A DNA stretch of 64,000 nucleotides from Candidatus Poribacteria bacterium (GTDB lineage Bacteria > Poribacteria > WGA-4E > PCPOR2b). The notes beneath the pieces were generated by a model. The model was not told where the DNA came from. It worked only from the letters and a program-made list of their open reading frames with translations, and did no database searches. The stretch covers positions 5,696,001-5,760,000 of the forward strand of contig OZ244042.1 of assembly GCA_965215015.1 (NCBI GenBank), read 5' to 3'. Both the position numbers and the translations under genes were made by a program. Positions 6,894 through 30,094 of the stretch are shown here, piece after piece (positions within the stretch are counted from its first letter, which is position 1; each line of letters begins with the position of its first letter).

Positions 6894-6999
6894 GGATTGT
6901 CTTCTAATTTATAAATTGGGATTCCGTGAGGCAATTTGCAAGGATTTTGGATCTGTCGATATTCCATTTGAGGGGTGCTCATTATTCAATGCGTGTACT

Positions 7000-7230
7000 C
7001 GCTCGATTTGGGCAAGGTCGCCTTGGCCAATTGTCGGGGCGAGGTCTCCTCGCTCAACGGGTAAGGGTTGGGAGAACCAACCCCTACCTACGAATTGTTA
7101 AGATTTAATAGATTTCTAATTAGCAGTAGCAAAATGTCAACACGCCCTGCCTATCGACACAATCGCATCGTTGACAAGCAGAACAAAGGGATTAGGTTTA
7201 ACCGTTCAACCCAACCTACGCCCACCCCTC
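7000..7230. repeat. Cluster of REP-like short palindromes
   Basis: Imperfect hairpins gggcgaggtctcctcgctc, gggttgggagaaccaacccctac and caacccaacctac in a non-coding region. Confidence 0.4.
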
Positions 7231-7650
7231 AGGTCCCAATATGTCACACGGCAGGGTCCTAAAAAAGCGGAGAACGAGAAAGCGAGAATTGTATAATAAC
7301 TCCTTTCTCGGGTAGATGGGGTCAGGTGTTGATGGTTATCCTGTGAATCCGTAAATCCAAACCCCCAGACTATTGCACAACCGCGCGACGGTGCGGGTAT
7401 CTGCTCGATTCCGATAATAATTCGTGCAATTCGCTTCATCTGCTGAATCCGTGATTCAGGCAATAATTATGAGCACGCCTCATTTAATCGAATTATCCAA
7501 CCCAACATAATATTACATTTCTTTAATACTTTTAACAAATTTGTGTTTTTTTGATCGACAAGCACTTGCATTTTTGATAAATTAAATTATATAAGAGGTA
7601 TTGTAATCAACAATACTAACCAACTCAGGAAACTGAGAATGATTAACAAA

Positions 7651-7743
7651 CCTATCCTGTAAGTCAAATGGGAAGCCCGGTGCAATCTCCAGGCTACTCC
7701 ATAGGGTTTTCCGGATAGACACCTTAATAATTATGGAGGATAA
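7651..7743 (+). ncRNA. Candidate compact (class II-like) cobalamin riboswitch sequestering the RBS
   Basis: GTC-AAATGGGAA-GCCCGG-TGCAATCT-CCAGGC (J3/4 plus T-loop stem), loop CTCCA (7697-7701), GG-TTTT-CC, GGATA-GAC-ACC, then hairpin TTAT-GGAGG-ATAA with the SD in the loop. CTCCATA (7697-7703) is complementary to TATGGAG (7732-7738). Recognised by eye only. Confidence 0.45.
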
Positions 7744-7747
7744 GACA

Positions 7748-8674
7748 ATGTTACGGATAAAAGTATCTTTAATCCTTATAACGCTCCTTGCTATTGGAGC
7801 CATTTGGAGCTTACCCTCAACCGTCGAGGCCCGTGATGTCACATTCCTAGTGTTTAACAACTCGCCCGACGCCTGGGGCGTTTGGGGACCGCCCGCCCGA
7901 GATCCTGCTACATTCGATGGCGGAAAAATTAAAACCGCACTTCAAGGTTTGTGGTACGAGGCAATCTTTAAGCAGTTTGGCTTTACAGAAGGTCAGGACT
8001 ATTTAGAAATCGTTGGTAACGATGTCCCAAAATTTGACAAGGAAATTTGGAGTGGCAAGTGGGATGTCATCGTATTCAGCTACCATATTTGGCGGGATAG
8101 CCCTGAGTTACAGGCATGGATTCAGGACAACGGCAAAAGACTCAAGGAGTTCATGGACGAAGGCCATGGCGTTATCAGCACCGGTGGCAGGGATCCCGAG
8201 GATCGACCGTTAGTAGCCCTGTGGGACGAAATGGACAAGGCACTGGCTGGATTCCCTGTGGCGGATAAATGCTGTCTTGCGTATGTCCCGGACACCCCAT
8301 TGACCAAAGACATGGTGGGCGGCATTATTGATACCTCGAAGTCTCCAGATCCGACCTTCGTGGGGGACGGGGATTTCCCCGGTTACGATAGAAGTAAACT
8401 GCCGGGGCACGCTAATGTGGCAGCCGAAGATATCGGCGATCCTAATATTGCCATTATTGTCTATGGAAGAGTTCAAAGAGGGGCTTATGTTCTGAGTGGT
8501 AGTGCCGAAATTACCAATATGAACATGGGCTTTGGCCAAAAGGAGCTTGGGGCAGGAAATTCATGGCTGCTCTGGCGGAACATGATCGATTGGTTTGAAG
8601 ATGCAAACCTTCGGGCAGTGAATCCGAAGGCAAAGCTCCCTATGACTTGGGCGCAGATCAAGGCCGGTCGATAG
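7748..8674 (+). CDS. Secreted protein of unknown function with C-terminal AVNPKAKLPMTWAQIK motif
   Basis: ATG 7748 after GGAGG; signal peptide ending VEA. WDVIVFSY...LKEFMDEGHGVIS hints at a class I glutamine amidotransferase-like fold (weak). Confidence 0.7.
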   Translation: MLRIKVSLILITLLAIGAIWSLPSTVEARDVTFLVFNNSPDAWGVWGPPARDPATFDGGKIKTALQGLWYEAIFKQFGFTEGQDYLEIVGNDVPKFDKEIWSGKWDVIVFSYHIWRDSPELQAWIQDNGKRLKEFMDEGHGVISTGGRDPEDRPLVALWDEMDKALAGFPVADKCCLAYVPDTPLTKDMVGGIIDTSKSPDPTFVGDGDFPGYDRSKLPGHANVAAEDIGDPNIAIIVYGRVQRGAYVLSGSAEITNMNMGFGQKELGAGNSWLLWRNMIDWFEDANLRAVNPKAKLPMTWAQIKAGR

Positions 8675-8698
8675 ACAATAATTGTCAACCTAATACTT

Positions 8699-8720
8699 GG
8701 GGCAAGTTAGACTTGCCCCC
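8699..8720. other. Intergenic hairpin GGGGCAAGT-TAG-ACTTGCCCC
   Basis: Perfect 9-bp inverted repeat between the first two array genes; no clear U-tract, so possibly an mRNA stabiliser or operator. Confidence 0.45.
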
Positions 8721-8779
8721 TTCCCACAACTTTTATAAGCATCAAAGGAGGATAGCTAAAAAACCAAGGAGGGATTATT

Positions 8780-9646
8780 ATGTCTCGCACTATTTTATTA
8801 TTCCTAGTTGGCATCTCATTAATTTATTTGTTCTCAATAGATGCGGATGCCAAAGTCCTCGGCTACTGGACGTTTGACGACCAAAAGAAGGTCGGGGAGG
8901 ATTTGTCAAACTTCGGTAACGATGGAGAGATAAAGGCAGGTGCTTGGACACGACAGGGAAAGGTCGGCGGTGCCTTGAACCTAACAGGTGGAGGAGACCA
9001 AGCACCGCACTATTTTGAGGTGCCCCATGACGATAGCCTGAATGTCAAGGACCAGGTGACCTTAATGTGTTGGATCAGTTTTAGTGGACCCGGGGAAGAA
9101 CAGAGTTTAATTTATAAAAATGGGCCCTTTATACTGGAAGGCGATAAGAAAGATCGAACGTTTTGGTCCTCTTACGCATTGGTCAAGTGGCGTGATAGAT
9201 GTGCCTGCGGCACTTTTGGGTTCGATGCGAACACAGAAGGTGGCCGATCGGCGGTGCTGCCTGGGGATCCACTAATTCCCGAAGCAAATGCTTGGCACCA
9301 CGTTGCCGCAGTGGCAGACGGCACCGAAATTAAAATCTACCGAGACGGTAAAGAGCGAGCAAAAGGGGCACAACGGGGTCCGTTTAAAAATTCCGAGCAG
9401 GTTTTGACAATTGGTTACGATCACCGCGTTCCGGTGGACCGTGTCGGTGGTGCGAGACGGCACCTGCGAGGCACCATAGATGAAGTGATGATTCTCGATG
9501 TGGCACTGACCCCGGACCAGGTTCAAGAGGCATTTAATCTCGGTGAAAAAGGGAAGTCCCTCACCGACATGGTAGAGATTTTTTCGGTCGAAGCCGAAGG
9601 TAAATTAGCCACGCAGTGGGGCGCGATTAAATCAAGAAGACAATAA
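8780..9646 (+). CDS. Secreted LamG/ConA-like domain protein, array copy 1
   Basis: Signal peptide ending ADA; YWTFD, GKVGGAL, VPHDDSLN, TLMCW, WHHVAAV.DG, IDEV motifs; tail FSVEAEGKLATQWGAIK. Confidence 0.88.
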   Translation: MSRTILLFLVGISLIYLFSIDADAKVLGYWTFDDQKKVGEDLSNFGNDGEIKAGAWTRQGKVGGALNLTGGGDQAPHYFEVPHDDSLNVKDQVTLMCWISFSGPGEEQSLIYKNGPFILEGDKKDRTFWSSYALVKWRDRCACGTFGFDANTEGGRSAVLPGDPLIPEANAWHHVAAVADGTEIKIYRDGKERAKGAQRGPFKNSEQVLTIGYDHRVPVDRVGGARRHLRGTIDEVMILDVALTPDQVQEAFNLGEKGKSLTDMVEIFSVEAEGKLATQWGAIKSRRQ

Positions 9647-9734
9647 ACGCCTTTCGCGCTGCACAAATATGATTCTATATCCACAATCTGTATTGTGATG
9701 GATAATGGATTTTTTGGCAAAAGGAGGGCTATTT

Positions 9735-10601
9735 ATGTCTCGCATCGTACTAATGTTTGTGGTTTTGTGCATCCATTTTCTCAGCGTGTTGCCTAGCGAC
9801 GTTGATGCTAAAGCTCTCGCTTACTGGACATTTGATGACAAAAATGAATTAGGAAAGGACTCCTCGGGCTTTGACAACCACGGCGAGCCGAAAAAGGCTG
9901 CTGTCCATAATCTGAAAGGGAAAGTCGGTGGTGCCTTGAGACTGGACGGCACCTCATGGCTTGAAGTTCCGCATGATGACAGCCTCAACGCCAAGGAGCA
10001 GATTACCCTAATGTGTTGGGTAAATTTTGATGCCGGTGCCTTAGGGGAATCGAGCGAGGTGTCCTTGATTTACAAGAATGGCCCCTTTATATTAGAAGGG
10101 GATCAGAAAGATCGGCGATTCTGGACCTCCTATTCATTGGCAAAGCTTCGTCCAAGAAAGAAATTGGGCAGCTTTATATTTGAAGCCCAAATGACCGAGG
10201 GGCGTGTGTTTACAGCCCCCGGGGATAAAGAGCACCCCGAAGCAAACGAGTGGTATCACATTGCGGCGACCGCTGATGGCACAAAGGTTCGACTGTATAC
10301 CAACGGAGTGGAAAAAACCGTTGCCGACCAGAGGGGGGAATTTAAGCCTTCGGAGCAAGTGTTAACACTTGGCTTTGATTTACGCATTCCGCCTGAACGC
10401 GATGGATCTAAGCCCTATCATTTTGGATTGCTCGATGAAGTGATTATTCTCGATAGGGCAATAACCCAAGCCCAAGTCAAAGAAGCGATAGAGTTAGGCG
10501 AAAAAGGGAAGTCGCTCGACAATTTTCAACTGCTCTTTGACGTTGCCCCCCAAGGCAAACTGGCTGTTAAATGGGGGGAACTTAAAGCAAGAAACAAGTG
10601 A
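9735..10601 (+). CDS. Secreted LamG/ConA-like domain protein, copy 2
   Basis: ATG 9735 after AAGGAGG; same scaffold; tail FDVAPQGKLAVKWGELK. Confidence 0.88.
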   Translation: MSRIVLMFVVLCIHFLSVLPSDVDAKALAYWTFDDKNELGKDSSGFDNHGEPKKAAVHNLKGKVGGALRLDGTSWLEVPHDDSLNAKEQITLMCWVNFDAGALGESSEVSLIYKNGPFILEGDQKDRRFWTSYSLAKLRPRKKLGSFIFEAQMTEGRVFTAPGDKEHPEANEWYHIAATADGTKVRLYTNGVEKTVADQRGEFKPSEQVLTLGFDLRIPPERDGSKPYHFGLLDEVIILDRAITQAQVKEAIELGEKGKSLDNFQLLFDVAPQGKLAVKWGELKARNK

Positions 10602-10688
10602 AACGGACCAATAACACAATTTGATACCATCTATCTCCCTCGAGCAAAGATGGGCAGATAGATTGTTTCGATGAAAGGAGTGTTATCA

Positions 10689-11549
10689 ATGTCTCGACGA
10701 TTAATCGTTTTGAGCTGTGCCATCATTTACTGTCTCTGCTTCCCCCTGATGGCTGTTGATGCCAAGGTACTCGGCTATTGGGCTTTCAATAGCAAAAATG
10801 AACTTGGCGAGGATTCGGGTCCATTCCGCAACGATGGAGAGGTGAAAGGAGAAGGAACTGCCGAATGGATTGCAAAAGGCAAGGTGGGGGGCGGATTGAA
10901 GCTAAGTAACGGGTGGCTTGAAGTCCCTCACGATGATAGTCTCAACGTGAAGGACCAGATTACGCTGATGTGTTGGGTTCAATTTAGTGGCGATGGCGAT
11001 CCATTTGGCGGCACAGGCCGGGATCAGTCCCTCGTTTGGAAGAATGGTCCATTTGCCACAAACAGGCGGTTTTGGACCTCTTATGCCTTGCGGGTATGGC
11101 GCAGGCATACCAACTTTGGTAGCTTCGGGTTTGATGCCAACTTGACAGAGGGTCGGAGTGCAACAGCAGATCCGGACTTTCCTGACCCAGGGGATGCGGA
11201 CAAAACGTGGTATCACATTGCGGGTGTCGCCGATGGGACAGACATCCGGATTTATACTAACGGAAAACTGAAGCAAGCTGTCATACAACGAGGGGAATTT
11301 CAAGCAACAGATCTTCCCTTAACGATTGGCTACGATTTACGCCACGGTTTGCTAGCCGGGCGTGAGTTTTTCTTGGGAATTATTGATGAAGTGGTGGTGG
11401 TTGATAAGGCACTGACCGAGGCGCAGATTAATGGAGCGATGGAGTTGGGTAAAAACGGGAAGTCGCTTGAAGGGTACAATCCTGTCTTCGCTGTTGAACT
11501 CGAAGGTAAATTAGCCACCCAATGGGGTGAGATTAAAGAGACGAAGTAA
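10689..11549 (+). CDS. Secreted LamG/ConA-like domain protein, copy 3
   Basis: ATG 10689 after AAGGAG; tail FAVELEGKLATQWGEIK. Confidence 0.88.
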   Translation: MSRRLIVLSCAIIYCLCFPLMAVDAKVLGYWAFNSKNELGEDSGPFRNDGEVKGEGTAEWIAKGKVGGGLKLSNGWLEVPHDDSLNVKDQITLMCWVQFSGDGDPFGGTGRDQSLVWKNGPFATNRRFWTSYALRVWRRHTNFGSFGFDANLTEGRSATADPDFPDPGDADKTWYHIAGVADGTDIRIYTNGKLKQAVIQRGEFQATDLPLTIGYDLRHGLLAGREFFLGIIDEVVVVDKALTEAQINGAMELGKNGKSLEGYNPVFAVELEGKLATQWGEIKETK

Positions 11550-11623
11550 GGGTTGTCTGTGTCTAAAACCAAACACACGCGTTCGTTACCTAAATTGACT
11601 TTAAGATGAAAGGAGAATGTCCA

Positions 11624-12481
11624 ATGTTTCGTGTCGTTTTAAGTGCTGGGATTTTGCTAATCTGCCTTTTGTGTTGTTCGACGATGAGTGCTGACGCGAA
11701 AGTCCGCGGTTATTGGGCTTTCAACAGCAAAAACGAACTTGGCGAGGATTCCTCTCCAAACCGCAACGATGGAGAAATAAAGGGCGACGGTTCAGGGGAG
11801 TGGATTGCAAAAGGCAAGGTCGGGGGCGGGTTGAATCTAAATAATGCTTGGCTTGAAGTCCCTCATGATGACAGTCTTAACCTGAAGGATCAGGCAACCC
11901 TTATGTGTTGGGTCAAATTTGCCAACCCCGGCGATTTTGCTGCTGGCGGTGGTCGGGAGCAGTCCTTGATTTGGAAGTATGGACCTTTTGAAACCAACAA
12001 GCAATTTTGGGCATCTTATGCCTTGCGCGTGTGGCGTCCCAAATCGAACTTCGGTAGCTTTGGATTTGACGCTAATATGACGGAGGGACGCAGCGCGGCA
12101 GTCGATCCAAAATTTCCTGAACAAGGCGACATAGAGAAAACATGGTATCACATCGCAGCGGTCGCTGATGGTACGGAAATCCGAGTCTATACCAACGGTA
12201 AAGAGGTGGGAAAGGGAGCTCAAAGGGGTGAGTTTCAGGCTTCCGACCTCCCTCTAACGATTGGCCACGACTTACGTCCCATATTAGTACATCATGCTTT
12301 TGTGAACGGTATCATGGATGAGGTTGTGGTCGCTGACAAGGCACTGACCGCTGCCGAAATCAACACAGCAATGGAATTGGGCGAAAAGGGGAAGTCAATT
12401 GAGGGATTCAATCCCATCTTTGCTGTTGAACCCGAGGACAAATTAGCCACCCAATGGGGCGCGATTAAAGAGACAAGGTAA
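11624..12481 (+). CDS. Secreted LamG/ConA-like domain protein, copy 4
   Basis: ATG 11624 after AAGGAG; tail FAVEPEDKLATQWGAIK. Confidence 0.88.
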   Translation: MFRVVLSAGILLICLLCCSTMSADAKVRGYWAFNSKNELGEDSSPNRNDGEIKGDGSGEWIAKGKVGGGLNLNNAWLEVPHDDSLNLKDQATLMCWVKFANPGDFAAGGGREQSLIWKYGPFETNKQFWASYALRVWRPKSNFGSFGFDANMTEGRSAAVDPKFPEQGDIEKTWYHIAAVADGTEIRVYTNGKEVGKGAQRGEFQASDLPLTIGHDLRPILVHHAFVNGIMDEVVVADKALTAAEINTAMELGEKGKSIEGFNPIFAVEPEDKLATQWGAIKETR

Positions 12482-12554
12482 CGGTTGTCTATGTCTACCC
12501 CCGTGAGGTACGCTCGTTGCCCAATCCGGCTTTGAGATGAAAGGAAAATTTTTA

Positions 12555-13409
12555 ATGTTTCGTGCCGTTTTAGGTATTTGGATTTTGTTAATCTGCCTTT
12601 TGTGGTGTTTGACGATGAGTGCTGACGCGAAAGTCCGCGGTTACTGGGCTTTCAATAGCAAAAAAGATATTGGCAAGGATTCGTCTCCAAATCGCAATCA
12701 TGGAGAACTAAAAGGTGAAGGTTCAGCGGAATGGATTGCAAGGGGCAAAGTTGGGGGCGGGATAAAATTTGATGGCAACTCTTGGCTTGAAGTGCCTCAC
12801 GATGATAGCCTCAACGTGAAGGATCAGATTACTCTGATGTGTTGGGCAAAATTTGGCAATCCCGGCGATTTTACAGGTGATGGTCGGGAGCAGTCCTTGA
12901 TTTGGAAGTATGGACCCTTTGAAACTAACAAGCGATTTTGGGCATCTTACGCTTTGCGCATATGGCGTCCCAAATCGAAATTCGGTAGTTTTGGATTTGA
13001 TGCCAATATGACGGAGGGACGCAGTGCAGTCGTTGATCCAAAATTTCCTGAAGTAGCTGACTTGGAAAAAAACTGGTATCACATTGCAGCGGTCGCTGAT
13101 GGTACGGAAATCCGAGTCTATACCAACGGTAAAGAAACAGCAAAAGGGCTCCAAAAGGGCGAGTTTCAGGCTTCCGACCTCCCTCTAACGATTGGCCATG
13201 ACTTGCGCCCCATATTAATACATTTTGCTTTTATGAACGGTATCATGGATGAGGTTGTGGTCGCTGACAAAGCACTGACCGCTGCCGAAATCAACACAGC
13301 AATGGAATTGGGCGAAGACGGCAAGTCAATTGAGGGATTCAATCCTATCTTTGCTGTTGAACCCGAGGACAAATTAGCCACCCAATGGGGCGCGATTAAA
13401 GCTTGGTAG
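12555..13409 (+). CDS. Secreted LamG/ConA-like domain protein, copy 5 (closest to copy 4)
   Basis: ATG 12555; long runs of DNA identity with copy 4; tail FAVEPEDKLATQWGAIK. Confidence 0.88.
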   Translation: MFRAVLGIWILLICLLWCLTMSADAKVRGYWAFNSKKDIGKDSSPNRNHGELKGEGSAEWIARGKVGGGIKFDGNSWLEVPHDDSLNVKDQITLMCWAKFGNPGDFTGDGREQSLIWKYGPFETNKRFWASYALRIWRPKSKFGSFGFDANMTEGRSAVVDPKFPEVADLEKNWYHIAAVADGTEIRVYTNGKETAKGLQKGEFQASDLPLTIGHDLRPILIHFAFMNGIMDEVVVADKALTAAEINTAMELGEDGKSIEGFNPIFAVEPEDKLATQWGAIKAW

Positions 13410-13527
13410 GGGTGGGGTCCCCCCTGCAGTGTTGTCCGGGGCGGTTGTTCCCTGATTCGCCGCGAGGTTCGGCAAACTCCCGGCATTCTCACGAACTCTA
13501 TCGCGACTACAGATAGGAGGGTAATCA

Positions 13528-14403
13528 ATGTTTCGTATTATGTTAGTTTTTGGCGTGCTGTTAATCTATCTTTTCTGCTGCTCCTTGACTAACACTGATG
13601 CCAAACTCCTCGGTTATTGGACTTTTGATGATAAAAATAAATTGGGCGAGGATTCCTCTCCAAACCGCAATCATGGAGAAACGAAAACGTTCGTCGGTGA
13701 AGTAAAATGGACGGACGAAGGCAAGGTGCGGGGAGGGATGCAACTACCGAATGGTCAAGAAACTTGGCTTGAGGTCCCTCATCATGAAAGCTTGAATGTG
13801 AAGACGGGGCAAATCACCATGATGTGTTGGGTCAAATTTACAGATCCCGGTGCTTTTACAGGTTTTGGTGAGGATGGCTCCTTGATTTGGAAAAATGCCC
13901 CTTTTGCGGAAAACAAGCGATTCTGGACCTCGTATGCCTTGCGGCTGTATCGCCCTGGGATTAATCGGGGGTCCTTCTCGTTTGATGCCAATATGACGGA
14001 AGCACGATCAGCGGCAATCGATCCAGATTTTCCGCTCGTTGTGGATGAATGGTATCACGTTGCAGGGACTGCTGATGGCACAATGGTTAGAATCTACACC
14101 AACGGAAAAGAGAAAGCCGTTGGTGATCAGCGGGGAGTATTCCAACCTTCTGATAATCCTTTGACAATCGGGTTCGATCTACGCGATCCGGACGAACCTG
14201 TTGCTCGCCACTTTCTGGGATTTGTTCGGGGTATCATGGATGAGGTGGTGATTTTAGACCAGGCGCTGACCGCAGGTCAAATCAAAGAAGCAATGGATTT
14301 GGGCGAAAACGGAAAGTCGCTTGAGGGCTTCCAGCCTGTCTTCGGAGTCGAACCTCAAGGCAAGTTAGCCATTAAATGGGGCGAGATTAAAAGGGTAAGG
14401 TAA
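13528..14403 (+). CDS. Secreted LamG/ConA-like domain protein, copy 6
   Basis: AGGAGG SD; same scaffold; tail FGVEPQGKLAIKWGEIK. Confidence 0.88.
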   Translation: MFRIMLVFGVLLIYLFCCSLTNTDAKLLGYWTFDDKNKLGEDSSPNRNHGETKTFVGEVKWTDEGKVRGGMQLPNGQETWLEVPHHESLNVKTGQITMMCWVKFTDPGAFTGFGEDGSLIWKNAPFAENKRFWTSYALRLYRPGINRGSFSFDANMTEARSAAIDPDFPLVVDEWYHVAGTADGTMVRIYTNGKEKAVGDQRGVFQPSDNPLTIGFDLRDPDEPVARHFLGFVRGIMDEVVILDQALTAGQIKEAMDLGENGKSLEGFQPVFGVEPQGKLAIKWGEIKRVR

Positions 14404-14467
14404 TTTAATCTTTGTTAGGATTTCAACACCGTAATGCGGTTAATTCGACTAACAGGAGGTACGATCA

Positions 14468-15322
14468 ATGTCTCGACGATTTATCATTTTTGGGGGAGTG
14501 CTCATCTGTCTTCTCGGTTCTTTTCTAATGGAGATTGATGCCAAGCTCCTCGGTTATTGGACATTTGATGTCAAAGCAAATGCACAGAGAGATTCTTCTC
14601 CAAATAACAACCATGGTGAATTCAAAGGGGGTGCCGCATGGACACCAAAGGGACAGGTCGCCGGCGGCGTTGTGCTTGATGAGGGAGCAGATTCCTACTT
14701 TGAGGTGCCTCATGACAACAGTCTCAATGCAGATGATCAGATAACGTTGATGTGTTGGGTCAGATTTACGGCAAACCATTTTGGCAGAGATCAGTCCTTG
14801 GTTTGGAAAAATGCGCCTTTCGCTGAGACGAACAAGCGGTTTTGGGCTTCCTATTCACTGCGGACGTTTCGTGAAGGGTTCAAGCTGGGGGGGTTCGCAT
14901 TTGATGCCAATACGGCAGACGGACGAACGGCCGCGGTAGATCCAGATTTTCTCGAAGTGAATAAGTGGTATCATGTCGCTGCAGTCGCCGATGGCAAGGA
15001 GGTCAGAGTTTATACCGACGCGAAAGAAAAAGTCGTTCAGGCACAGAGAGGGGCGTTTCAACCAACTGAATTCCCGTTGACTATTGGCTTTGATTTGCGG
15101 GACCCGGGAGCCGGCAAAGTCCGCCGGGATCAGTTGGGATATGTTCAGGGCATCATGGATGAAGTGGTGGTTCTCAGCCACGCCCTGACCCCTGCTCAGG
15201 TCAGAGAAGCCAAAGAGCTAGGAGACAGGGGAAAATCACTCGACAAATATGCTCCAGTCGCTGCGGTCGAACCTGCCGGCAAGATAGCCGTTAAATGGGC
15301 AGAGATTAAAGCGCGAAGATGA
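14468..15322 (+). CDS. Secreted LamG/ConA-like domain protein, copy 7
   Basis: AGGAGG SD; same scaffold; tail AAVEPAGKIAVKWAEIK. Confidence 0.88.
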   Translation: MSRRFIIFGGVLICLLGSFLMEIDAKLLGYWTFDVKANAQRDSSPNNNHGEFKGGAAWTPKGQVAGGVVLDEGADSYFEVPHDNSLNADDQITLMCWVRFTANHFGRDQSLVWKNAPFAETNKRFWASYSLRTFREGFKLGGFAFDANTADGRTAAVDPDFLEVNKWYHVAAVADGKEVRVYTDAKEKVVQAQRGAFQPTEFPLTIGFDLRDPGAGKVRRDQLGYVQGIMDEVVVLSHALTPAQVREAKELGDRGKSLDKYAPVAAVEPAGKIAVKWAEIKARR

Positions 15323-15440: not shown

Positions 15441-15521
15441 GTAGCAGTTGTTATTAATAGAGTGGCAAAAGAATTCGCCGGGATGTTGGAATTGGTAGAC
15501 AAACTAAATTCAGAATATAGT
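15438..15521 (+). repeat. Degenerate direct repeat of the tRNA-Leu leader and 5' half (att-like scar)
   Basis: actgtagcagttgtta...ggcaaaagaattcgccgggatgttggaattggtagacaa.cta.attcag.at.tagt matches 17126-17206; lacks the T-arm and 3' acceptor strand. Confidence 0.85.
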
Positions 15522-15701
15522 TTGACGCATACCTTTTTCAAAATGTGAGTGAATCCAGTCATTTGGAATAGTGGCTGTGATTTGCTAAAGATGAACGACT
15601 GGTGTCTCAGGTGAATCATCGCTATTTCAATTATAGTCTCGTCTCGATTTTGAATCGGGATCAGAGCGTCTAAAATCTGTTTTTTTCCGAAGAAGGAAAA
15701 C

Positions 15702-17080
15702 ATGAGACGCGAATTTTTCAACAGCCGCTTTTTAATTATCTTGGGAGGACTTCTGGTTATTGGCGGGTATTACCTGTTCCAGCGAGAAAGGAATCCAGAA
15801 GGTCCTCCTCCTAAACAGTTTCAGTCCCCGATTGAGGACAAGCACTCATCCAGTCAAAGCCTGTCCCAGATTGTGAATGGGACAGAGAAGCGAGAGCCCC
15901 CTGCTCGGATTAAATCTGTTCACTCCCATCAGCCATTTTCCGTAGATTCTTCAGATGTAGACACTTTACGTATTCCCCCTTCAAAGCTAGAACGGATAGA
16001 TGCGCTATATGCGAGTCTGCCCTATGCCCAGGCTAAAGAGAAAGCGGTTGAGGTTCTAACAGAGGGGATGGACACGCTCAGTGCGGCCAAGCATCTGAAA
16101 GACCTGAACAAGTATGGTCTCGTAGTCGGTTTGTCTGATTACGTCCGCGAACATGCAGACAGAGCCCTGGCCGAGAATCCTGGCTCCTTTGAGGCACTGC
16201 TCCTCTGGACTCAACTCCGCCCTCCCGAACAGGCTGCCGAAAGGGAAGCTGGTTTTCGGAAATTACTCCGGATGAATCCCAATTCGGTTGAGGCGTTAGT
16301 TGGATTAGGCACCCGGCTTGCTTTTGAGGGCAGACCTGAAGAAGCACTGGGACCCCTCGAAAAAGCAAGCCGGCTTGACCCAGGGAGGCCCCCATCCATA
16401 TTAGGATTAACTTATGAACTACTTGGCCAATATGATAAGGCATTAGTTGCCCTCAAACAATCGTATAAAATGACACGCTCACCGGTAGAACTAGCTCATA
16501 TTCGAGCTATCGAAGCCGGGGACCCTCTCTGGAAGCCGCAAAGGTGTGAGTCTTTTGGACAACCCCCGGAGTCATCTTCTCCTGAAACGTCCTCTGAATC
16601 TCCACCCCAAGAAGATGTCCTTCCCATTCCCGATACGCCTTCGGGTTTGATTTGAAAGGTGAAACAGGCTTTGATGACCAGCTAAGGGACATCACGCCGC
16701 CACGCGAAGACAGAGGCGTAACCGCAGCAGAACAACAAGCCATCGAGGAGCTAATTCAGATTATTGAAGAATACGAAGCGTCGTTAAGCAGCCCGTCAGT
16801 TCCATCCGCTGCCGTTGAGGGACGGATAACGGATTTGGAGCGTTCTATTGAATCCCGACCCAATCGGGCGGAGAGTTATCTAAAGTTGGAGCGGGCTTAC
16901 CAAGAAGCGGGCGAGGATAAGAAAGCCGCCGAAGTGTACCGCCGGGCAAGGGAGCGTTTCCCGGAATCGGAGCGGGTGCGGCGGAAATTGGAGGCATTCC
17001 GGAATGAGCGTGAGCGTCCAAGGGAACGCAATGATGAGGATGATTCATATTCTGATGAAGCCGAAGAGGCGGAGCAATAA
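15702..17080 (+). pseudogene. Membrane-anchored TPR protein, frameshifted by a 5-bp duplication (ORFs 15702-16655 and 16652-17080)
   Basis: N-terminal TM, TPR repeats (SVEALVGLG, YELLGQYDKALVAL). TTTGA-TTTGA at 16646-16655; removing one copy fuses the two ORFs into a protein colinear with 30095-31402. Confidence 0.8.
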
Positions 17081-17161
17081 ACCTATCCCTCGACTATCCG
17101 GGAGTGGTAAAAGTTCATCGGTTTAACTGTAGCAGTTGTTAAACCGGCGGCAAAAGAATTC

Positions 17162-17247
17162 GCCGGGATGTTGGAATTGGTAGACAAGCTAGATTCAGGA
17201 TCTAGTGGGCTCTTTCGCCCGTAGGGGTTCAAATCCCCTTCCCGGCA
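17162..17247 (+). tRNA. tRNA-Leu (anticodon CAG), CCA not encoded
   Basis: Acceptor GCCGGGA/TCCCGGC-A, D-loop GGAATTGGTA, anticodon arm CTAGA-TTCAGGA-TCTAG, long variable arm, T-arm AGGGG-TTCAAAT-CCCCT. Confidence 0.95.
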
Positions 17248-29696: not shown

Positions 29697-30030
29697 AAAA
29701 AAGCCCTCCCGTTCCAATCCTCAGTAGAAGTTCCCCGATTGAAGATTTCAAGGAACAACTTTCGAGGATATACTTGGAGACGAGAAGGGCTTCCTCTAAA
29801 GTCCTTACCGCGGTACCACTCCAATTCCCTTTCGCTGATCAAATACCGTGTGTAAAAGGGCACTCATTGGTATGCGTAACGTGCATCAACCCGGCTAACC
29901 CTACGTGGGGTTTTCAGGCTAGCAGCTCCAGGGCGACCTTCAGTCGGGGTTACTTGGGGAAACCTCTCAGCCGGTGGATTTCCCGCTCTGTCAAGACCGC
30001 TCGACTTACTCCTCCCCTTCATCGCTTTTT
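29697..30030 (-). ncRNA. T-box riboswitch (Val specifier GUC) upstream of ilvB-ilvN-ilvC
   Basis: Minus strand: GCGATGAA, AGTA, CAGAG, GCTGA, GAA-G-GTC-G specifier loop (codon at 29935-29937), T-box GGAG-TGGTACC-GCG (29812-29818) with antiterminator 3' strand CGTCTCC, terminator AGCCCTTCTCGT...ACGGGAGGGCT-TTTTT. Confidence 0.9.
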
Positions 30031-30094
30031 TGCATTCAGTTTTGAACAAGATTACTTATCGGGAAGAAAATCCCTAAAAACCCTGTTAATTCAA

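Follow-up and report, generated by a model that had tools for sequence, protein, structure and literature searches.

A conserved row of LamG paralogs with class-specific loops, headed by a predicted ThuA-like gene, in a genus of Candidatus Poribacteria

Results

Organization of the array

The subject of this work is a tandem array of eight genes in a Candidatus Poribacteria genome (GenBank assembly GCA_965215015.1). The array occupies positions 7748-15322 of a 64,000-nucleotide (nt) stretch of contig OZ244042.1, which is called the window and to which coordinates refer unless a locus is named. The eight co-oriented open reading frames (ORFs), a leader gene and seven LamG paralogs, lie on a single 5.94-Mb contig and are preceded by two upstream elements:

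7555..7583, + strand: predicted sigma-70-like promoter with extended -10 (9/12 matches, TG), kept in 17 aligned upstream regions, mostly as TTGACA
7595..7724, + strand: conserved three-hairpin 5' leader RNA, likely a stabilising 5' untranslated region (UTR) (covariation, no Rfam family)
7748..8674, + strand: leader gene, predicted secreted protein with a ThuA-like / class I glutamine amidotransferase (GAT)-like fold and the common tail (fold model, no Pfam hit)
8780..9646, + strand: LamG paralog, class P1
9735..10601, + strand: LamG paralog, class P2
10689..11549, + strand: LamG paralog, class P3
11624..12481, + strand: LamG paralog, class P4 (84% identical to P5)
12555..13409, + strand: LamG paralog, class P5
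13528..14403, + strand: LamG paralog, class P6 (modelled)
14468..15322, + strand: LamG paralog, class P7

The paralogs were recognized by their Laminin_G_3 (PF13385) match, the alignment and the class tree, and P6 also by the structure model. They are 284-291 amino acids (aa) long when counted from starts preceded by a Shine-Dalgarno (SD) site, are 49-54% identical to the first paralog, and all seven pass the PF13385 cut-off (59-73 bits versus 27.6). Intergenic gaps measure 64-118 nt. Each paralog has a predicted signal peptide with DA before K at its end (cleavage site judged by eye), and all eight proteins, including the leader, terminate in a V.P..KL...W[GA].IK tail. For comparisons across genomes an alignment of 125 array proteins was used, 119 from 16 full arrays and six from the divergent loci G002 and G024 described below; the genes of a more remote cluster (G021, 31-36% identical) were excluded. 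By pattern judgement, 123 of the 125 proteins have an A-x-A-type end followed by a predicted mature chain that begins with K or R. SD-like sites precede 108 of the 125 genes, and terminator-like hairpins were found in 3 of 106 gaps. As far as can be judged from sequence, this anatomy fits co-expression of the panel.

Most of what an initial annotation of the window had described was found again. The seven co-oriented LamG paralogs with SD sites are borne out by the ORFs, the PF13385 scores and the alignment, and so are the predicted signal peptides ending in DA before K and the unrelated, predicted secreted protein with the common tail at the head of the array; the near-invariant blocks it listed are present in the all-paralog alignment, and the loop strings it quoted are in the sequence. 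Its claim of inserts of variable length at four places holds in part. The segment after SY.L has 9 residues in all nine classes (see below) and thus varies in sequence, not in length, and two further length-variable loops, before W/F-EVPH and between GPF and FW, had been overlooked.

Ortholog classes and conservation of the loops

Sixty-one genomes were searched for the array, 20 of which, this genome (G000) included, form the genus. A full array was found in 16 of the 20, with six members in one genome, seven in seven genomes and eight in eight. In these 16 genomes the gene order is identical, and the array is flanked by a sugar ATP-binding cassette (ABC) transporter on one side and a tRNA gene on the other; identity to the matching window gene is 80-94% across the other 15 full arrays. 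In a class tree the array positions form nine classes across species: P1, P2, P3, P6 and P7 (16 members each, support 0.995-1.0), P4 (n = 16), P5 (n = 14), P6x (n = 6) and P5b (n = 3).

Sixteen rows that had been mis-trimmed in the tree were re-trimmed for the loop and scaffold statistics, in which the loops are L1-L4, and P5b was left out of the within-class values. Within classes the residue difference is 8.3% in the loops and 8.8% in the scaffold at a dS of 0.56, and dN/dS is 0.092 and 0.084, respectively (permutation P 0.38). Loop lengths are constant within classes, apart from one P4 row for L0 and one for L1, and several loops are identical in all class members, namely L1 and L4 of P5 (14/14), L2 of P7 (16/16) and L4 of P6x (6/6). 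Between classes the loops differ at 66.7% of residues versus 32.5% in the scaffold, gap mismatch is 17.4% versus 1.4%, and 27 of the 39 class-diagnostic columns fall within L1-L4 and L1b, with 5 more in L0. For the youngest paralogs pairwise counting, in which related genomes are not independent and some saturated pairs were not computable, gave a dN/dS of 0.13-0.22 for loops versus 0.05-0.08 for the scaffold; the highest values for single loops were 0.49 (P4/P5 L4) and 0.81 (P1/P2 L3, near saturation), and none exceeded 1. The values for variable loop columns at codon positions 1, 2 and 3 were 0.17, 0.15 and 0.76.

Synonymous identity was equal in same-genome and different-genome paralog pairs, which indicates that there is no general gene conversion, the exceptions being a 3' segment of P4/P5 (73 versus 66%) and segments of P5/P6x. 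Contigs from four sequencing runs of one study showed no joints, and only such differences as fit cross-mapping between P4 and P5; contigs of this kind drop rare variants, and these may derive from the source sample. No reverse transcriptase or recombinase was found among the 27 scanned ORFs of window 52-32728.

The array is a real, genus-level, fixed panel of LamG paralogs, whose loops are conserved across species under purifying selection. The loops had been called hypervariable in the initial annotation, and an antibody-like diversification had been proposed for them. The loops vary only between paralogs, and orthologs in other genomes keep the loops of their class; the within-class dN/dS, the fixed lengths and the predominance of third-position variation lend no support to the proposed diversification. 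In the comparison of array size and loop sequences across genomes, which it had suggested, size varied from six to eight with occasional change, whereas loop sequences were near-fixed per class. The sequences are best read as a germline-encoded panel of related binders that differ in their loops. As a repertoire it is closed and old, changing via duplication, loss and rare recombination, and as a diversification system the array is ordinary, a case of tandem duplication and divergence.

Divergent loci and database homologs

G002 carries a divergent form with three LamG genes (58-60% identity) and a leader of 50% identity. At this locus (L012:7465-12192) the 5' leader RNA is near-identical, although identity of the four ORFs to the common form is no more than 50-60%. 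In G004 and G008 (both single-contig, 99% complete) the flanks are joined and the operon is absent. In a midpoint-rooted tree of three flanking genes G002 groups with these operon-less genomes (support 1.0), which suggests that its form is a replacement or an older state. The assembly of G016 is broken at the array site. In G024, which belongs to another genus, three members are spread over two contigs and stand in other gene contexts, and L063 contains one short-looped LamG copy, alone.

The leader gene was detected in 17 of the 61 genomes and is represented by 13-18 database proteins. At each of the 17 leader-bearing loci the operon is adjoined by the divergently transcribed sugar ABC transporter with its two binding proteins exported by the twin-arginine translocation (TAT) route. 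Two distant metagenome contigs (L080 and L081, probably one lineage) have a LamG gene directly before the leader homolog; L078 and L079 have a leader homolog without a preceding LamG gene.

Of 122 database homologs found (at least 120 listed) 111 were analysed, and those with a named source are from Candidatus Poribacteria. The nine classes accommodate 101 of the 111, which come partly from the same genomes; the others are one clear P4/P6x chimera (P0061), one P4/P5 mix and eight divergent or unassigned proteins. P0061 joins an N-terminal P4 part to a C-terminal P6x part, as would fit a deletion through recombination between paralogs. G024/P0100, flagged as a mosaic, proved to be a divergent protein and no chimera. 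The G021 locus (L029:7540-13203) is a different cluster of five tail-bearing LamG-like genes, and in the relatives P0114, P0116 and P0120 the loop region contains very long inserts, P0120 also being fused to propeller repeats and a dockerin.

Predicted folds of the LamG paralogs and of the leader

One paralog, P6, was modelled (predicted local distance difference test score, pLDDT, 88; predicted template modelling score, pTM, 0.87) and gave a ConA-like sandwich with a tail region of low confidence. The best fold match was AbnA domain 4 (PDB 5hon; Z 22.3, root-mean-square deviation, rmsd, 2.4, 196 aligned), followed by CBM40 (Z 16.5), pentraxins (Z 15-17.5), jelly-roll domains of clostridial neurotoxin complexes and pappalysin. 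AbnA domain 4 is described as binding arabinan in a Trp-rich concave cleft (PMC9110388). K97, F107, W108, R117, R135, D140, D192 and R194 (P6 mature numbering) are each present in at least 95% of the 125 array proteins; among 23 other LamG-like proteins that bear the tail, each occurs in 25% or fewer. The D-L-R motif and the N-K-R-F loop align with segments of pentraxin 3flp that we take to be its calcium/ligand site, the ligand positions being likewise presumed. These residues suggest a basic site shared by the classes, which would hold an anionic group and be bordered by the class-specific loops. L1-L4 follow alternate strands of the model and, on strand order, likely share one rim.

The leader had no Pfam hit and nothing credible against PDB sequences. 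Its model (pLDDT 79) matched 1t0b (Z 14.8, rmsd 4.0, 214 aligned), 3rht (Z 13.5) and 2gk3 (Z 13.2), and on this basis it is predicted to have a ThuA-like / class I GAT-like fold. A feature match was to a DUF4960 cluster (0.94). TGGRD, the likely nucleophile elbow, has Gly in 17 of 18 rows at the presumed place of the catalytic Cys, and Cys in one. A weaker match was 8aa2_G (Foldseek E 1.5e-4), which agrees in length with Bt1761, a levan-binding protein whose binding domain is described as ThuA-like (10.1101/2022.08.15.503959).

The C-terminal tail

The tail is not particular to this locus. A tail profile, built from most of the ORFs that it then scored, returned 84 C-terminal windows and one mid-protein window at 8 bits or more, and 83 ORFs were kept genome-wide. 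They lie in 36 clusters and comprise 36 propeller-like proteins (presumably TolB-like), 20 LamG proteins, 9 proteins that we take to be Kelch-like, and smaller sets. Twenty-five of the 26 LamG matches over the cut-off fall in tail-bearing ORFs, and this array is the largest LamG cluster. LamG proteins had also been said to be reported as abundant in Poribacteria; this genome has 26 PF13385 matches over the cut-off, but a printed statement was not found in the literature searched, the available text of PMC3909097 and PMC5087111 containing no mention of LamG or laminin, while their tables may list such genes.

On the tail profile the segment before a FlgD-Ig/type IX secretion system (T9SS)-like C-terminal domain scored 7.3-10.5 bits in 5 of 28 scored proteins; in a random-window control 2 of 3000 were above 7 bits. 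This domain has been noted in Poribacteria without T9SS structural genes (Kamke 2014, PMC3909097). Its tail-like neighbour suggests that the tail may help to form an address for export or docking. Tail-like segments directly before the domain are located at G000:C1 247632, 249567, 4050544, 4423122, 4424598 and 2132280, a sixth case sitting in a frameshifted gene. The genome also encodes a 29-member family of ~640-aa membrane proteins (e.g. G000:C1 2311618-2313540), and 7 of the 29 have a tail gene no more than 3 kb away (null maximum 5 of 300, mean 1.4); none adjoins this array. No description of this array or tail was found in the literature searched, supplements being outside the scope of the search.

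Promoter region and neighbouring features

The 130-nt leader RNA and the promoter-like site are kept in all 17 leader-bearing genomes. In the RNA alignment 96.4% of cells are paired, and there are 9 two-sided pair changes versus 3.6 in shuffles, a contrast inflated by relatedness. A model of the RNA found one copy in 17 of the 61 genomes, recovering only its 17 training sequences, and Rfam scans of the window and nine related loci (gathering cut-off, E-value 5-10) returned nothing relevant. Since it has no Rfam match, is single-copy and leaves the SD free, the RNA is likely a stabilising 5' UTR. Scans gave 21 promoter sites versus 9.2 expected and 12 terminators versus 9.6, so that a single site weighs little. 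A cobalamin riboswitch (RF00174) upstream of the array was considered and had no covariance-model match; the one cobalamin riboswitch of the genome is at C1:544829-545025.

The gap before the promoter (window 6966-7496) is filled by several short dispersed repeats with many genomic copies. In G005 (L014:13476-14504) and G018 (L025:14921-15766) extra ORFs resembling transposases lie between transporter and promoter. At window 15477-17247 the tRNA gene (17162-17247, CAG anticodon) is accompanied by a degenerate duplicate of its 5' portion around 15477-15521, and the two tetratricopeptide repeat (TPR) ORFs between them, not found at any other locus, point to a small insertion at the tRNA. An ordinary T-box leader was seen at 29773-30031 (- strand), upstream of branched-chain amino acid genes.

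Discussion

The locus and its counterparts present a syntenic row, nine classes, frozen class-specific loops, a shared tail, and occasional gain, loss and chimeras. The AbnA and levan-binding fold matches, taken with the invariant Lys/Arg/Trp/Asp set, point to a panel of likely anionic-glycan binders. In our judgement the chances are about even that the ThuA-like gene and the seven LamG paralogs, likely one operon, export a fixed panel of non-catalytic proteins that bind related glycans, likely acidic ones. One promoter and the structured 5' UTR would then drive a single transcript, and the products would leave by Sec export via type I signal peptides. The tail would address or dock the proteins at the envelope, as for ~75 other proteins. 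The invariant Lys/Trp/Arg/Asp set might bind a common anionic core, with the loops of each class selecting flanking parts; the loops would have diverged after each duplication and then been fixed, in sub- or neofunctionalisation.

Several observations weigh against a panel of glycan binders. No glycosidase, sulfatase or TonB-dependent transporter gene and no SusC/SusD pair was found at the locus, the nearest of 14 PF00593 matches genome-wide being ~164 kb away. The array proteins have no lipobox or lipoprotein anchor by pattern, so that any surface display is hypothetical. The P6 fold list also contains protein-binding or structural domains (toxin domains, pappalysin, neurexin and laminin domains), thus the fold match alone gives no function, and AbnA domain 4 is only 20% identical to P6. 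The leader superposes on 8aa2_G with an rmsd of 8.9, and 8aa2 is not among the best 50 VIA matches listed, the best of which are uncharacterised ThuA-like proteins, IFT52 and amidotransferases. Two near-complete genomes of the genus lack the operon, P4 is poorly separated from P5 and is no well-supported clade, and its loops are the most variable (15%, dN/dS 0.154).

The array could instead be a fixed panel of protein-binding adhesins or recognition proteins, directed at host matrix or cell-surface proteins through the loop rim as in neurexin/laminin LNS domains. We consider this unlikely. Neurexin is described as binding neuroligin via one end of its sandwich, the 'hyper-variable surface' (PMC3084293), and the array proteins have L1-L4 placed for a single rim and long class-specific loops with exposed hydrophobic residues; the closest folds, however, are carbohydrate-binding domains, and the loops are kept across 16 genomes, whereas host-protein targets would be expected to drive change. 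It appears improbable that the eight proteins assemble into one hetero-oligomer or filament, with the loops as fixed interfaces between subunits. The gene order kept in 16 genomes, the frozen loops, the pentraxin-like fold and a weak NCBIfam match to TafC, a fimbrial tip protein, would suit such an assembly; the TafC matches are far under cut-off and extend over no more than its LamG part (PMC11821415). A strict assembly is difficult to reconcile with copy numbers of six, seven, eight and, in G002, three, with the chimera P0061, and with the single short-looped copy of L063.

There is a slim chance that the products are periplasmic capture proteins feeding the adjoining sugar ABC transporter, as its presence in 17 of 17 leader-bearing loci would invite one to think, but the transporter is also present in G004 and G008, which lack the operon, and the G024 members stand in other contexts. 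An antibody-like, actively diversifying repertoire is very improbable. Loop divergence between paralogs is twice that of the scaffold, the loops hold most indels, and loop dN/dS of young paralogs is 2-3 times that of the scaffold; nevertheless, this reading is largely refuted by the within-class conservation and the codon-position statistics, and neither general gene conversion nor a generating enzyme was found in the scans described above. Hardly any weight can be given to a corrinoid (B12) capture operon, a ligand suggested in the initial annotation. The structured 5' leader does contain a short riboswitch-like stretch in this genome, but the stretch is variable across genomes, no Rfam family matched even at E 5-10, and the cobalamin riboswitch is elsewhere; the RNA not being such a riboswitch, the suggestion has no support.

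Compared with known systems, the favoured panel of glycan binders would resemble the surface glycan-binding proteins of Bacteroidota utilisomes such as Bt1761, presumably of SusE/F type, in being non-catalytic exported proteins encoded in an operon and in the ThuA-like fold of the leader; it differs in having no lipobox, SusC/SusD pair or glycosidase at the locus, and a C-terminal tail instead. AbnA domain 4 shares the fold over the whole domain, a PF13385-type sandwich, whereas the array proteins stand alone without a catalytic domain, are amplified to six to eight genes, and have basic invariant residues instead of a demonstrated Trp platform. In neurexin, loops form the hyper-variable surface; LNS/LG domains would share with the array variable loops on one rim, but array variation came through gene duplication, not splicing. 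The ligand-site segments of pentraxins align with the invariant motifs, and in the array the acidic calcium ligands, as we take them to be, appear partly replaced by Arg/Lys. Diversity-generating retroelements (DGR), variable lymphocyte receptor (VLR)/antibody-type and cassette-shuffling systems likewise combine a fixed scaffold with different loops; the array, in contrast, has no within-class variation of that sort, is under purifying selection, and shows no generator or template among the scanned ORFs.

A more far-reaching idea, to which we attach a low probability, is an undescribed Poribacteria display system. Dozens of binders would be docked on one envelope scaffold by a tail of 20 residues that originated from the segment before the T9SS-like C-terminal domain, and the operon would be a co-expressed panel of six to eight metal-free, arginine-based lectins, each reading its own sulfation or uronate pattern on glycans of the host matrix. 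If the more general reading as a panel of glycan binders is true, the nine classes would offer nine proteins that are small, soluble and defined in sequence, with specificity loops that are frozen. Direct screening of these could reveal the host or water-column glycans recognised by a dominant uncultured symbiont, and the classes would form a natural series in which to follow the retuning of a LamG site by loop changes. The array would also supply test cargo for the unexplained Poribacteria tail.

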